A DNA stretch of 60,128 nucleotides from Minisyncoccota bacterium (lineage in GTDB: Bacteria > Patescibacteriota > Minisyncoccia > UBA6257 > GWB1-50-10), in NCBI GenBank assembly GCA_020059915.1, contig JAGVBB010000002.1, positions 1-60,128 of the forward strand. Direction: 5' to 3'. The position numbers and the translations under genes are program-made. Each line of letters begins with the position of its first letter. The first letter of the stretch is position 1. Below, piece after piece: positions 9,265-49,605 of this stretch. The notes below the pieces were generated by a model. The model ran no database searches. It had not been told where the DNA came from and was given only the letters and a program-made list of their open reading frames with translations.

Positions 9265-9807
9265 TTAATAGGTTGCTGGTTTTATTGAATCAATCGCGGA
9301 TACTGGCCACAGACGGAATTTCACAAGACCAGTAACATCATTTTTCGTAAGCGGTCCCCATGAACGTGAATCATAGCTAAAATCTCTATTGTCGCCCATC
9401 ACAAAATATTCATCCTCCGTGAGTGTTTCATCAATATTTTTTGCAATACTCATTCCTGAAATATATGGCTCAACTAATTGAATTTCTTTCCCATCAACGT
9501 CATACACAGTAACCGAGTCATCCTGGACCACTACTCGCTCTCCAGGTAATCCAATGATGCGTTTTATATAATATGCCTTGTGATCACCGGGATACTTAAA
9601 GACAATAATTTCACCTCGTGCTGGCTCCCTGAAACGATATGAGAGTTCATCAACAAGAAGATAATCGCCGTCTTTAAAATTTGGCTCCATACTTGATCCA
9701 CTTACCAAAAATGGTTGTGCAATAAATGTTCGGATGAGTATCACTGCAATAACAGCAATTGCAACCGTCTCGACCACCTCAAATAAGGACCAGAAAAATT
9801 TTCTCAT
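9265..9807 (-). CDS. lepB: Signal peptidase I
   Basis: SGSSMEPN, YIKRIIGLPG, GDNRDFSYDSR. Confidence 0.96.
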   Translation of the reverse strand: MRKFFWSLFEVVETVAIAVIAVILIRTFIAQPFLVSGSSMEPNFKDGDYLLVDELSYRFREPARGEIIVFKYPGDHKAYYIKRIIGLPGERVVVQDDSVTVYDVDGKEIQLVEPYISGMSIAKNIDETLTEDEYFVMGDNRDFSYDSRSWGPLTKNDVTGLVKFRLWPVSAIDSIKPATY

Positions 9808-9911
9808 CCCGTTAGAAAACCTGACAACTAAGTTTATTCGACGAAAATGATGTTTGTGTGTGTATATCCATATACGTTTTTATTTTCATGTATGTTCTGT
9901 TTTCTAACGGG
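9808..9911. mobile_element. 104-bp MITE-like element, copy 1
   Basis: Termini cccgttagaaa / tttctaacggg; homologous to 29494-29599. Confidence 0.65.
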
Positions 9912-9964
9912 ACTCATGTATTATATAGCAGTTTAACCCTAAGTATGCGATAATTTTACTCAAG

Positions 9965-28188: not shown

Positions 28189-29493
28189 TTATTTTGTTTC
28201 TGTATGTGTTCGCGACGTGGTATATGCAAGTAGAGTAAATAGCGCAAGATATGATGGAAAGATATCAAACAAAACAATCCCCTGCACAAGATAGGCAATC
28301 ATAATTCCCAACAACACTGCCCGTTCCCCCAATGAAATATGTTTTGTATCTTTTGTCTTTTTCCACACATAGAAAAATGAAAATATCATTCCCAACAGTC
28401 CAACAATCCCAACAATCCCCGTCCCGACAAGTGCATCAAAATACAAACTGTGTGCCCTATCAAACCAGGTTTCCCCTCCAGTTACCGGATCAAAGTGACG
28501 ATGGTCAAAATATTTATCAAACACCATACTGAAATTTTCCGGACCCCATCCAAAAATTGGGCGCTCCTTGAATCCCTGTAGTGCCGAATTCCACGTCCAC
28601 AATCGCGTTTGGGCTGTCTGTTCCTGAAGCGAGATGGTAAATACACGAAATCCTGGAATTTTCTGAAGTGTTGGATTGGTACGAAATGCAATAAGCAACG
28701 ATGAAACGATTACCAACCCCGCCAATACACCAAGCACTTTTTTGCGAAGATGCTTGTTGTTGAATGCAATAAAAAATAAAGAGAAAAATAATCCAACAAC
28801 CAATCCTAAAAACGCGCCACGCGTCTGTGAAGACCAAGAAGCAAGAAGTGATACTACCGCAATACCAAGGAACCAATTCTTTTCCTGTTTGGTGACGGCA
28901 CGAAACGCACTGATGAGTGCAAACGCCATTGTGAACAACATAAATGTCCCCACATATGCAGGGTTCCCCAAACTTCCTGCAAAACGAAGTCCCGCAGAAG
29001 AAAATGATTGTCCAACAAATCCGTTAATTCCCAATCCTGCCCCGACCCCATAGAGCATCACCAGGGCAGAAGAAACAATCCAAAATATAAAGAACCTTCT
29101 CCATGCCTTCCAATCCTTGAACAGTACCACTGCCATAAAGAAAAAGGCACCAAGATTCAATAACTGCAATCCCCCCTCTCCCCGTTCAAAGTTTGACCAA
29201 AATGATGCGGTGGGATTCACTCCAAAAAATCCAGCAACTACAAACGTAGCAACGTATACCAACGCGCCAATCGCAAGTGGATGTGTTATTACTCCCTTCA
29301 TTCTGGCAAGCATTTCATCGTTTTCATCCTTAAATACCAACCCCAATGAAAATGCTATTACTGCCAACCCAACACAGATCCTGAAAAATACATATTTCCC
29401 CACGATAAATGGAAATAAGGTAGAAGATGTAACAAGGACAACTGAAAAGATTGCTGCATATAGGAAAAATCGAGCAAGTTTGAAATAATCCAT
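28189..29493 (-). CDS. O-antigen ligase / oligosaccharyltransferase family
   Basis: LGNPAY, SQTRGA, RLWTW..ERPIFGWGPENF, DRAHSLYF; ATG at 29493. Confidence 0.92.
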   Translation of the reverse strand: MDYFKLARFFLYAAIFSVVLVTSSTLFPFIVGKYVFFRICVGLAVIAFSLGLVFKDENDEMLARMKGVITHPLAIGALVYVATFVVAGFFGVNPTASFWSNFERGEGGLQLLNLGAFFFMAVVLFKDWKAWRRFFIFWIVSSALVMLYGVGAGLGINGFVGQSFSSAGLRFAGSLGNPAYVGTFMLFTMAFALISAFRAVTKQEKNWFLGIAVVSLLASWSSQTRGAFLGLVVGLFFSLFFIAFNNKHLRKKVLGVLAGLVIVSSLLIAFRTNPTLQKIPGFRVFTISLQEQTAQTRLWTWNSALQGFKERPIFGWGPENFSMVFDKYFDHRHFDPVTGGETWFDRAHSLYFDALVGTGIVGIVGLLGMIFSFFYVWKKTKDTKHISLGERAVLLGIMIAYLVQGIVLFDIFPSYLALFTLLAYTTSRTHTETK

Positions 29494-29599
29494 CCCGTTT
29501 AGAAATCCTGACAATTTGGTTTGTTCGACAAAAATGGTTTTAATTTCATAAATATATAATTTCAGTGGTTATCCCGTACAAGTTCAGATTTCTAACGGG
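29494..29599. mobile_element. 106-bp MITE-like element, copy 2
   Basis: cccgtttagaaa ... tttctaacggg; left ~45 bp similar to 9808-9911. Confidence 0.65.
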
Positions 29600-29788
29600 A
29601 TCCATTACCAGTAAGTGTATCGCACTTATTGAAAGATTTAAAGATTGAAAATTGAAGAATAATGGAGGTAGGCCCCACTACAAGAGAAATCCTAATATCT
29701 AAAAACTAAATTCCAAACAAATTCAGAGAAATTTTAAACAGGAGAGTAAATTCCCGCTGGAGTTTATCCGCCGTGGCAAAAGAGATGG

Positions 29789-29880
29789 ATTCCCGTTTTC
29801 ACGGGAATGACAGAATGGGAACGTGAGTGACAGAAGGAGGACGGGAATGACGGGTATGAGTCGAGGATGATAGAACAGGT
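29789..29880. repeat. ATTCCC-N8-GGGAAT palindrome plus four degenerate 20-nt tandem units
   Basis: attccc gttttcac gggaat; units start at 29801, 29821, 29841, 29861. Confidence 0.7.
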
Positions 29881-39401: not shown

Positions 39402-40577
39402 CTATTTACCAAAAATATTAGAAAGACGCTGTAATGCTTCCACTATATCTTCCTTTGTTGTCTGATAACCAAAACTTGCTCGCACACCATTTATTTTTTT
39501 ATCATCCCCTCCATACATTGCGGATAATACATGTGATGCGCTGTGTGCACGTGCAGAACAGGCAGATCCAGAAGAAAAAGCAACGCCCAATAGATCTGCT
39601 TGTGTTAAAAATTCTTCTCGATTCATTTCTTGTAAATGAATATTAACAATATGTGGCGCATGTTTGCCGACTCCGTTTATCTTGCTTTCCGGGAAAATTT
39701 TCAAGAATCCTTTTATAAATTCTTTCCGTAGCAACTCAACGCGTTTCAGTTCTTTTTTCCTGTTTTTTTGAGCAACAGAAAATGCTTCTGTACAACCCAC
39801 AATATTTTGAACATTCTCAGTCCCCGATCGCAAACCAAATTCCTGACCACCACCAGTAATGATGGGGGTTAGTGGGTGGGGGTTAGGGGGTAGAGTAGAA
39901 ACAAGAACACCAACACCTTTTGGTCCACCACATTTATGTCCGGAAACAGTAAGCACATCAACACCAAGTTCTTTCAGTGAACAATCAAAATATGAGAATG
40001 CTTGGACGGCATCGGTGTGAAAGATAGGGGTTAGGGGGTGGGGGTTAGGGGGTAGAGATTTTTTAAAGTCAGAAACGATACAGGAGATTTCTTTAATTGG
40101 TTGAACAGATCCAATTTCGTTGTTCACATACATAATGGAAACAAGAGCAGTATTTTTTGTTAAAGATTTTTTTAGTTCATCCAATAAAATAATTCCATCT
40201 TCATCAACGGGGAGAAGCACAAGGTCTATTTTCTTTTCACGTTCAAGTGTGCGAGCAGTTTCAAGAACAGATTCGTGTTCAATACTCGAAATAACAACTC
40301 GTGGCACACCATTTCCCCTCCAGTTAGCAACAACCCCTCTCAAGGCAAGATTGTTTGCCTCGGTTGCAGAGCCACAGAACAACACACCGCGAAAATCAAC
40401 ATCAAATATCTTTGCTATTCGTTCGCGCGCACCATCAATGGCTCCCATGGCCTCCTGGCCAAAAGAATGAAGCGATCCTGGATTTCCAAACTTTATATTA
40501 AAGTATGGGATCATCGCTTTGATAACCTCTTTTCTTACTGGCGTTGTCGCCGCATAATCAAGATAAATTCGCCTCAT
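39402..40577 (-). CDS. Cysteine desulfurase (NifS/IscS class V)
   Basis: YLDYAATTP, GNPGSLH, HTDAVQA, SGHKCGGPKG, RSGTEN, SSGSACS; ATG at 40577. Confidence 0.94.
   Translation of the reverse strand: MRRIYLDYAATTPVRKEVIKAMIPYFNIKFGNPGSLHSFGQEAMGAIDGARERIAKIFDVDFRGVLFCGSATEANNLALRGVVANWRGNGVPRVVISSIEHESVLETARTLEREKKIDLVLLPVDEDGIILLDELKKSLTKNTALVSIMYVNNEIGSVQPIKEISCIVSDFKKSLPPNPHPLTPIFHTDAVQAFSYFDCSLKELGVDVLTVSGHKCGGPKGVGVLVSTLPPNPHPLTPIITGGGQEFGLRSGTENVQNIVGCTEAFSVAQKNRKKELKRVELLRKEFIKGFLKIFPESKINGVGKHAPHIVNIHLQEMNREEFLTQADLLGVAFSSGSACSARAHSASHVLSAMYGGDDKKINGVRASFGYQTTKEDIVEALQRLSNIFGK
39861..39895. repeat. In-frame heptamer insert, copy 2 (encodes LPPNPHPLTP)
   Basis: 33/35 identical to 40023-40057. 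Confidence 0.9.
40023..40057. repeat. In-frame heptamer insert, copy 1 (encodes LPPNPHPLTP)
   Basis: Coding strand ctacccc ctaaccc ccacccc ctaaccc. Confidence 0.9.
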
Positions 40578-43950: not shown

Positions 43951-44077
43951 CCGTGGTGTGTGCACGTGCATACACCTATATCATACACCCCACAAAAACT
44001 CCCGATAGAAAGGAACAAGGCAAAAAAACAATGTCTAGAACATGCTTTTTTTGTTGTGGATAACTGGGGACTCGCAA

Positions 44078-44295: not shown

Positions 44296-44643
44296 ACTCC
44301 GACAAAAGTCGGAGTTTTTTTATGGGCGGCTATTTATTAGATTGGGAATTCTTTCAACTAACCACTCGCCGTCGCTCGTGGTTGTTTCAAGCCTGGGCTC
44401 GCTGTGCTCGTTACTACTCGCACAACGCTCCGCCCTTCAATTCCTAATCAGAGACAATAAATTGTCTCTGATTCTATCCGCCAAAAAACTCCGACAAAAG
44501 TCGGAGTTTCTTTTTGGGCGGCTAGAGGGAATTTTTCTCCCCCAACCTCATTATCATTCGGCTTCCTCCGAAACCTGCCGCACCCGCTCGGACCAATGGC
44601 GCGGGTGTCGGCTTCAATTTCTTTTTAATTGCCCAACTACGTT
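44296..44643 (-). repeat. Two tRNA-His 3'-end duplication units
   Basis: 19-bp copy at 44515-44533; degenerate copy at 44324-44350; identical 20-nt hairpins at 44296 and 44488. Confidence 0.85.
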
Positions 44644-49253: not shown

Positions 49254-49531
49254 TTTGTCGGCACTTCGCACTGCTGTATTCAGCACCTCCTTCGCCTTCG
49301 CTTTTTGTCGGCACTTCGCACTGCTGTATTCAGCACCTCCTTCGCCTTCGCTCAGTCGGGATGCCGGGAATCGCCTCTCGCTCTACTGAGCTCGAAACCT
49401 ACGACCTCTCTTCGAGGTCTGCGGCCCGCGGTTCGATTCCATTTCAAAAAATAAAAAACGGGGCAAGAAGCTCCGTTTTTTATTTGTCGGTACTTCGCAC
49501 TGCTGTGCTCAGCACCTCCTTCGCCTTTGCT
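49254..49531. repeat. Three 49-bp direct repeats, a 22-bp tRNA-Pro 3'-end copy and the 74-nt element (copy B)
   Basis: Copies at 49254, 49304, 49483; 49352-49373 equals 49531-49552. Confidence 0.9.
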
Positions 49532-49534
49532 CAG

Positions 49535-49605
49535 TCGGGATGCCGGGAATCGAACCCGGCCTACCTGCTCCCAAAGCAGGCGTACTACCGATATACTACA
49601 TCCCG
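49535..49605 (-). tRNA. tRNA-Pro(TGG)
   Basis: CGGGATG/CATCCCG; CCTGC-TTTGGGA-GCAGG. Confidence 0.95.

Follow-up and report, generated by a model that had tools for sequence, protein, structure and literature searches.

Short inverted-repeat elements at the start codons of lepB and an O-antigen-ligase-like gene: probable mobile MITE-like insertions that rebuild the codon they enter

Two unrelated genes in the stretch of DNA analysed here (60,128 nt, hereafter the window) begin without any gap at the end of the same short repeat, and this raises the question of what the repeat is and how a gene can begin at its very edge without being broken. An initial annotation had placed the repeats, with inverted ends, at 9808-9911 and 29494-29599, and had the minus-strand ATGs of lepB and of the ligase follow the terminal TTTCTAA(A)CGGG directly and in the same orientation; on these points the sequence is as described. 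The 11-bp terminal inverted repeats (TIRs) that it reported are also present, but one more complementary pair, T...A, lies outside them, so that the elements extend over 9807-9912 and 29493-29600. The two copies and their host genes are as follows.

9807..9912, minus strand: copy 1, 106 bp, non-coding, perfect TIRs, TCCCGTTAGAAAAC at each end
29493..29600, minus strand: copy 2, 108 bp, gene-side arm TCCCGTTTAGAAA with one extra T, distal arm TTTCTAACGGGA
9820..9849, minus strand: interior block common to both copies, next to the gene-side arm, in copy 1
29507..29536, minus strand: the same interior block in copy 2
9265..9807, minus strand: lepB (signal peptidase I), host gene of copy 1 (Peptidase_S26, E 5e-47)
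28189..29493, minus strand: gene of a Wzy_C / O-antigen-ligase-like membrane protein, host of copy 2 (E 2e-18), start ATG at 29493-29491

The ends of both copies read (T)CCCGTTAGAAA...TTTCTAACGGG(A). The string CCCGTTAGAAA occurs exactly three times in the window, always within the two copies, the fourth arm having one extra T; counted on the printed arms, the perfect inverted repeat of copy 1 is 14 bp long. The left interior that the copies had been said to have in common was recovered as the 30-mer CCTGACAAYTWRGTTTRTTCGACRAAAATG adjoining the gene-side arm, with two matches in the window and none in 100 shuffles. The exact-end counts and the shuffle test rule out a chance repeat as the origin of the two copies; position 44001 (CCCGATAGAAA), considered as a further element, lacks a partner arm and was put down to chance. 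Neither copy has any coding content apart from short upstream open reading frames (uORFs), which start outside the element. A closed stem is predicted for each copy, at -22.9 kcal/mol (z -3.3) for copy 1 and -21.9 kcal/mol (z -1.5) for copy 2. The G+C content is low throughout (31-45% per 2-kb window, mostly 34-42%), and the close relatives of the sequence are Parcubacteria/Paceibacterota from groundwater.

Both copies are flanked by 4-bp target duplications, and the gene-side half of each forms part of the host reading frame.

9803..9806, minus strand: gene-side duplication of copy 1, TGAG on the gene strand (CTCA on the plus strand), bases 2-5 of lepB
9913..9916, minus strand: upstream duplication of copy 1, TGAG on the gene strand (CTCA on the plus strand)
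29489..29492, minus strand: gene-side duplication of copy 2, TGGA on the gene strand (TCCA on the plus strand), bases 2-5 of the host ORF
29601..29604, minus strand: upstream duplication of copy 2, TGGA on the gene strand (TCCA on the plus strand)
9805..9807, minus strand: working lepB start codon, with the element's terminal base as its A (9807) and with TG from the target duplication

On the gene strand the site of copy 1 is ...TATAATAC ATGAG T[CCCG...CGGG]A TGAG AAAATTT, and that of copy 2 is ...GGTA ATGGA T[CCCG...CGGG]A TGGA TTATTTC.

The initial annotation had called the element MITE-like and had proposed a comparison of lepB upstream regions in relatives, and this comparison supports mobility. 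In Logan contigs from four public groundwater or subsurface runs (X1-X4), which are 95-99% identical to the window at the lepB locus, 110 bp (9803-9912) are absent in four out of four, and five letters fit both sides of the joint. The absent block equals the 106-bp element plus one copy of the 4-bp duplication. Two more distant relatives from GTDB (L015 and L016; HisS 83-84% identical) have the empty site ...ATACATGAGAAAATTT before lepB. Given the exact absence in the four runs and the empty sites in the relatives, we conclude that copy 1 entered the lepB site recently, as 106 bp with a 4-bp duplication, and that it is polymorphic. At the site of copy 2, the contigs of X2 and X3 diverge from the window exactly at 29493, where homology stops. 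A third copy was found elsewhere in run X1, as ..TATAATCCCTCCAT ATGGAT[element]ATGGAGGAGCAG.., with the flanks ATGGAT^element^ATGGAGGAG... (^ marks the insertion point).

These presence/absence differences also bear on whether the copies could instead be a conserved, immobile cis-regulatory leader RNA, riboswitch- or attenuator-like, of two membrane-protein genes. Both copies do occupy 5' leaders and have a predicted closed stem, as such an RNA would, but the element is missing from the same gene in near-identical strains and from the orthologous lepB leaders of the relatives, target duplications flank it, and interiors are unrelated across the wider group of elements described below. A search of the window and 15 further loci against Rfam, at gathering or E<=1 thresholds, returned no matching family. 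We regard this explanation as scarcely tenable, the presence/absence polymorphism having already refuted it.

The pattern CCCGTTAGAAA-N70-100-TTTCTAA(N)CGGG was scanned for in JGI metagenomes and GTDB genomes. At least 120 matches were obtained in the metagenomes and at least 120 in the genomes, where only a handful would be expected by chance, an estimate based on the length of the pattern and the size of the collections. Hundreds of elements of 90-130 bp in these two sources are bounded by the same ends, with interiors that are unrelated between subfamilies. The hosts include many lineages of Patescibacteria (among them Nomura-, Moran-, Kaiser-, Doudna-, Buchanan-, Berkel- and Kazan-bacteria) as well as Omnitrophota, Planctomycetota, Desulfobacterota/Deltaproteobacteria and Nitrospirota/Thermodesulfovibrionales. 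A search of IMG/VR for carriage by phages gave one match. We found no description of these elements in the literature, although our coverage of it is incomplete and they may have been described elsewhere; the superfamily is large, widespread and apparently undescribed. The interior of the window subfamily, by contrast, is rare, and only its ends are widespread: a GTDB scan with the gene-side 19-mer, TTGTCAGGNTTTCTAAN{0,1}CGGG, gave only 12 scattered, chance-like matches. One further member with the interior block of the two copies was found in run X2, at a non-start site.

Across the superfamily the TIR is 13 bp, Y-CCCGTTAGA(A/G)A-N, and 13 bp is also the median length of the perfect inverted repeat. 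The outer pair of 247 elements of 90-130 bp is C..G in 151, T..A in 87 and something else in 9; the window copies belong to the T..A-ended subclass. The target is asymmetric, R^T(G/A)AA, and is duplicated over 4 bp, perfectly so in 156 of the 247. Among 198 clean cases the duplication was TGAA in 72, TAAA in 62, TCAA in 18 and TGAG in 15, with a purine at the -1 position before the target in 184 and no constraint on the +1 base after it. Two other accounts of the junctions, a 5-bp duplication around an asymmetric element and an IS200/605-like insertion without duplication, were rejected on the same grounds: the two outermost bases are complementary without exception, and ATGAA-C...G-TGAA is the reading at 11 sites. 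Palindromic elements derived from IS200/IS605 (PATE), which lack both TIRs and a target duplication and insert 3' of a fixed tetra- or pentanucleotide, are excluded by the 13-bp inverted repeat and the 4-bp duplication, together with these 11 cases, in which the target has not been left unchanged beside the insertion.

At the variable 13th position the two arms agree in 232/270 and 73/75 comparisons, and at the 14th they agree at chance level. Such agreement at variable positions points to selection on a 13-bp stem, rather than to two independent binding sites, as far as can be judged from sequence comparison.

The ends themselves invite another reading, in which a site-specific recombinase moves the elements as recombination sites, be they similar to integron attC or a Xer/tyrosine-recombinase core that arises from abutted ends. 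GTTAGAA and TTCTAAC in the ends resemble attC core motifs, abutted ends would form an 11-6-11 palindrome, and several contigs have an element at almost every gene boundary. The order of the motifs is nevertheless GTTAGAA...TTCTAAC on both strands, the reverse of attC (RYYYAAC...GTTRRRY), so that an integron attC can be rejected; the moving unit is the 110-bp element and not a gene cassette; targets share only R-T-N-A-A and no arm-like sequence; and the 11 sites at which an old ATG faces a rebuilt GTG (see below) fit a staggered 4-bp duplication. We therefore consider recombination sites very improbable.

The placement at translation starts, which had been proposed as a preference of the element, is not confined to the window. 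In a census of starts and stops among elements with at least 310 nt of flank, T..A-ended elements lay exactly at the start of a long ORF in 59 of 74 cases (80%), six of them in an ATGA stop/start overlap, and the random placement of other copies that would have spoken against the proposal was thus not seen for this class. Element ends directly followed by ATG opened an ORF of at least 100 codons in 67/82 cases (82%); for random [AG]TGA[AG] sites drawn from the same DNA the figure was 17%. The C..G-ended elements were found at a start in 16/122 cases, at a stop in 7/122 and at neither in 99/122. A-ended elements sit at A^TGAx in 70/76 cases, and related pairs of elements at different genes have the same orientation relative to the gene in 14/14. 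Eleven elements have ATG as the old copy of the start codon and GTG as the rebuilt one, with a perfect 4-bp duplication, from which we conclude that the element provides the start codon's first base. The suggestion that the element supplies an initiation signal is met to this extent, in that its last base is the first base of the rebuilt codon.

It could be hypothesized that the elements have no preference of their own for starts, that they insert at any R^TNAA, and that the observed pattern is left by purifying selection in compact genomes. The target motif matches ATGAA/ATGAG in any case, the C..G-ended relatives are mostly elsewhere (the 99 of 122 above), and the member of the window subfamily in run X2 is inserted at ..A^TCAA.., away from a start. 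Our results do not favor selection alone, because A-ended elements are almost confined to A^TGAx and 80% of them are at starts, and because orientation is constant both in the 14 independent related pairs and in all start-codon units that carry a GIY-YIG gene (described below), which a symmetric process acting through selection only would not readily give. We hold it to be unlikely, though by no means negligible. The bias towards start codons could thus reflect targeting, selection acting on R^TGAA insertions, or a combination of the two.

Taken together, we consider it highly probable that copies 1 and 2 are mobile, non-autonomous, MITE-like elements that rebuild the start codon. Insertion at A^TGAx duplicates TGAx, and the terminal A of the element (G in the C..G-ended class) comes to precede the gene-side copy. 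Since the base before that copy is the element's own, an intact ATG (or GTG) is rebuilt directly after the element and the ORF is left untouched, with the old ATG remaining upstream, where it opens a short uORF running into the element. The bias towards starts could then arise because ATGA(A/G) fits the target motif and is at the same time one of the few harmless sites in a compact genome; this is an inference, and a role of the asymmetric target in directing insertion as well is hinted at by the orientation, which does not vary with respect to the gene. The following features of the two leaders are relevant to this model.

9834..9917, minus strand: old lepB start (9917-9915) and a 27-codon uORF, MSPVRKQN..., its TAA lying 27 nt before the lepB ATG
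29546..29605, minus strand: old start at copy 2 (29605-29603) and a 19-codon uORF, MDPVRNLN..., ending within the element
9920..9925, minus strand: TATAAT hexamer, 2 nt upstream of the old lepB ATG

Judged from sequence reading only, including that of the hexamer, and without transcription start data, the host promoter region of lepB stays upstream of copy 1. The old start codon is kept in 64 of 85 start-codon elements, and the uORFs that these 64 open end within the element in 52, in an overlapping TGA in 9 and in an in-frame fusion in 3. A Shine-Dalgarno-like 4-mer precedes the old start in only 7/85. No RNA run was found to contain the lepB locus. The host promoter and the old initiation site would, we infer in the absence of transcript data, still drive expression, and the transcript would gain a leader of about 110 nt, closed by a 13-bp terminal stem that extends as far as the A of the AUG. 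Such a stem should hinder initiation at the rebuilt AUG, and tolerance by the host is inferred from intact ORFs only. Ribosomes starting at the old AUG might translate the 5' arm, melting the stem, and stop 27-50 nt short of the real AUG, where they would re-initiate. This uORF/re-initiation model should be interpreted with caution, as it has neither experiment nor transcript data behind it, and we put it forward as a possibility that may well prove wrong.

An outward promoter within the element was considered and rejected. Hybrids of the form TTGTCA-18-GAAAAT/GATTAT occur in both copies, but the number of matches is close to the shuffle expectation, and the -10 falls inside the ORF, so that a transcript would begin after the ATG. 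On the plus strand, the conserved interior block (9821-9848 and 29508-29535) holds a weak sigma-70-like match, CTGACA-16-GAAAAT/AAAAAT, which is a consensus match only; in both copies it is directed away from the host gene, and in copy 1 towards pth.

The question of which enzyme moves the elements leads to relatives that do have a gene. These are units about 277 bp long, with CCCGTTAGAGA...TCTCTAACGGG as their ends and an ORF of 86 aa that is a GIY-YIG domain (Pfam PF01541, E 2.9e-16). A GTDB search with an alignment of four such proteins retrieved at least 566 relatives, 67-99% identical, from the same phyla, and at 74 of the best 80 GTDB loci the gene lies within a unit of 272-285 bp that has the superfamily ends and obeys the same flank rules, as in ATGAAT^unit^ATGAA.. 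and TTTAC^unit^GTTTAC. The right arm of the unit encodes the invariant C-terminus ..FLSLTG, and in 52 of the 74 units the stop codon is made of the first 3 nt of the target duplication, TGA being the commonest and TAA the next. At start-codon sites the ..GGA TGA of the unit overlaps the host ATG as ATGA; the GIY-YIG gene is always co-directional with the host gene, and in 10 cases it shares the reading frame of the host's old ATG. Only 23/74 units have a perfect 4-bp duplication, a poorer record than that of the short elements. At least six genomes, LCKG01, MFEY01 and PFMD01 among them, were listed for the elements as well as for the GIY-YIG gene, and in metagenomes with the unit of locus L292 further contigs have the terminal 23 nt of this unit around a different stretch of 87 letters. 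In a sister GIY-YIG gene (L044:1580-1870), with 61% identity to the others, both arms carry another inverted repeat (CCCTGGTAAATA...TATTTACCAGGG); its stop, TAA, is again supplied by the flank GTAAA, and the design is the same.

The 86-aa protein belongs to a family of at least 7127 clusters at 90% identity, whose names go no further than "putative endonuclease" or "GIY-YIG nuclease family protein". Residues of catalytic type are invariant in 30 sequences, with conserved positions of the Tyr/Tyr/Arg/His/Glu/Asn type. Its relatives in sequence are the UPF0213 proteins 1zg2 and 1ywl. An AlphaFold model (pLDDT 90) consists of a single domain and one C-terminal helix, and is closest to UPF0213 BH0048, the catalytic domain of At-HIGLE (TM 0.66) and Slx1, and further from I-TevI. 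UPF0213, Slx1 and HIGLE are structure-specific nucleases, and At-HIGLE, as the protein is named in the PDB title, is a Holliday-junction resolvase. With TIGR01453 the protein scored 24.6 bits, below the cut-off of 56. A GIY-YIG domain protein is among the genes that Patescibacteria have apparently donated to other bacteria (PMC12455944).

Several searches around the units were negative. A tblastn search of the 60,128-nt window found no GIY-YIG gene (best E 0.47). A clean empty site for a GIY-YIG unit was not found, the contigs at L292 breaking at the repeated ends, nor was the protein P0090 found in differing contexts, its neighbours always being the same. The window elements and the GIY-YIG units have only the ends of about 13 bp in common. 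The nuclease is the only candidate mobilising enzyme that we found, and its role is inferred, not shown.

We propose, tentatively and with somewhat less than even confidence, that the ~277-bp units represent a new class of minimal autonomous transposon, that the window elements are its non-coding riders, and that the nuclease recognises the hairpin or cruciform of its own ends; transposase activity is untested. A unit of this kind, with the nuclease as its sole protein, may have no promoter, ribosome-binding site or stop codon of its own; it would enter a host start codon, rely on the transcription and initiation signals of the host, borrow TGA or TAA from the duplicated target as its stop, and pass translation to the host gene by way of the ATGA overlap. 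The class appears to be spread over many lineages of Patescibacteria and at least five other phyla. The short element would be mobilised in trans by the 86-aa nuclease, given that the ends and the target rules are the same, a step for which there is no experiment and on which we are evenly divided. The covariation of the arms at the first and 13th positions suggests that the enzyme recognises the 13-bp stem; it would then cut the base of the stem with a 4-nt stagger, and host repair or a ligase would complete the movement. Characterised GIY-YIG nucleases leave short 3' overhangs or nicks in branched DNA and are not known to make 4-nt 5' staggers. GIY-YIG nucleases are not known as transposases, and chemistry of this type is not known from DNA transposition.

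Alternatively, the elements could be ordinary MITEs moved by a classical DDE transposase encoded elsewhere (for example IS1380- or piggyBac-like), with the GIY-YIG gene as cargo or a co-resident selfish gene. piggyBac inserts as TTAA^CCCTAGAAAG..., and the IS1380 family has CC ends with 4-5-bp repeats, and the 4-bp duplication at T-N-A-A and CCC...GGG termini of the present elements resemble both; on the criterion of a 4-5-bp duplication with CC(C) termini they qualify. The clean empty sites are likewise compatible with precise insertion or excision, and the poorer duplications of the GIY-YIG units compared with the short elements would suit a gene that is not itself the mover. A DDE ORF between the same ends was not found in a search limited to DNA near the elements: at more than 240 loci, whose flanking DNA amounts to about 1.9 Mb, no pair of ends 0.4-3.5 kb apart encloses a long ORF, and a long autonomous element was not identified in them. 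The outer pair covaries, the target is asymmetric with a purine at -1 and the partner is a GIY-YIG gene, in all of which the elements differ from piggyBac/IS1380. The arm covariation favours a stem over two independent protein-binding sites, and the sister GIY-YIG lineage has changed both arms together. The idea of cargo also sits badly with a right inverted repeat that is the last codons of the gene and with a stop borrowed from the target duplication, an integration too tight to be needed by mere cargo. A classical transposase acting in trans is not excluded, but this alternative strikes us as rather improbable.

How far, then, do the elements fit known systems? As MITEs, copies 1 and 2 qualify by their length (below ~300 bp), lack of coding content, TIRs and a duplication verified at an empty site, and by dispersed copies at unrelated loci (two in the window, a third in X1, hundreds elsewhere). 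As to an autonomous partner, the same 13-bp ends exist with a GIY-YIG gene, of untested transposase activity and without a copy in the window. Families for comparison among bacteria are Correia/NEMIS of Neisseria, RUP and ERIC, and the Rickettsia palindromic elements. Bacterial MITEs are similarly about 100 bp long and non-coding, with TIRs, a short duplication, many copies and strain polymorphism, and they lie at gene boundaries and become part of transcripts; the Rickettsia elements likewise persist in compact genomes through harmless sites. Unlike bacterial MITEs, the present elements have ends that are identical across many phyla around unrelated interiors, a target inside the start codon, a last base that rebuilds ATG or GTG and a fixed orientation, and their sole coding relative is a GIY-YIG nuclease instead of a DDE transposase.

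REP/REPIN sequences and their RAYT enzymes offer a second parallel, with many short palindromic non-coding elements, a small enzyme gene flanked by the same repeats and hairpin-forming DNA as the likely substrate. RAYT, however, is an HUH tyrosine enzyme and REPINs have no target duplication, whereas here there are a GIY-YIG protein, a 4-bp duplication and sites at start and stop codons. With I-TevI, the Seg proteins of T4 and Slx1/HIGLE the partner protein shares the GIY-YIG catalytic core. It agrees with a GIY-YIG homing endonuclease in this domain only: at 86 aa it lacks a DNA-binding domain apart from the catalytic one, inverted repeats bound it, it takes its stop from the target, and it occupies many unrelated sites with duplications and does not home to one allele.

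If our reading holds, a mobile element can sit in the three most sensitive bases of a gene without breaking it, because it brings along the missing base of the start codon. This would account for the survival and spread of selfish DNA in Patescibacteria, whose genomes are extremely compact, and it would provide a rule for annotating hundreds of odd leaders and duplicated start codons. It also raises the question of whether a structure-specific nuclease of 86 residues can be the sole encoded function of a transposon. The elements mark strain-level polymorphism in groundwater populations, and the ATGA overlaps made by insertion are natural examples of translational coupling. Leaders with a uORF and a hairpin probably alter the expression of essential genes such as lepB, for which there are no transcript data.

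A number of minor observations concern the loci of the superfamily. Another element's end lies directly before ATGAAT^GIY unit at L279:1455-1480, two identical 50-bp units stand in tandem at L076:11-117, and four elements occur within 3.4 kb at L041:1074-4462, several of them directly at start codons; in these tandem or nested insertions, rebuilt target sites seem to have been hit again. Versions of 24-60 bp, amounting to roughly two arms and a loop, follow the same flank rules at L039:998-1029, L131:4786-4813, L228:2660-2687 and other loci. A contig that also has an element carries a match to the Rfam int-alpA RNA (L031:487-552; 41.6 bits, gathering score 35.8).

Other repeats were noticed in the window. 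The short palindromic repeat ggattcccgttttcacgggaatgacag... at 29776-29823 stands out by its contig depth (X1, about 10,000; X2 and X3, about 85; neighbouring sequence, about 5); it is extremely abundant in groundwater metagenomes, and the similar ATTCCCGC..GCGGGAATGAC lies inside L131:7026-7398. A G-rich repeat, GGGGTTAGGGGGTGGGGGTTAGGGGGTAGAG, occurs twice, 162 bp apart, at 39858-39895 and 40020-40057, and a terminator-like hairpin, ACTCCGACAAAAGTCGGAGTTTTTTT, is duplicated at 44296-44332 and 44488-44524, the copies being 95% identical. Finally, three direct repeats of about 70 nt (79-94% alike) span 49254-49552, the last overlapping the tRNA gene at 49535-49605, and may be remnants of integration at the tRNA.
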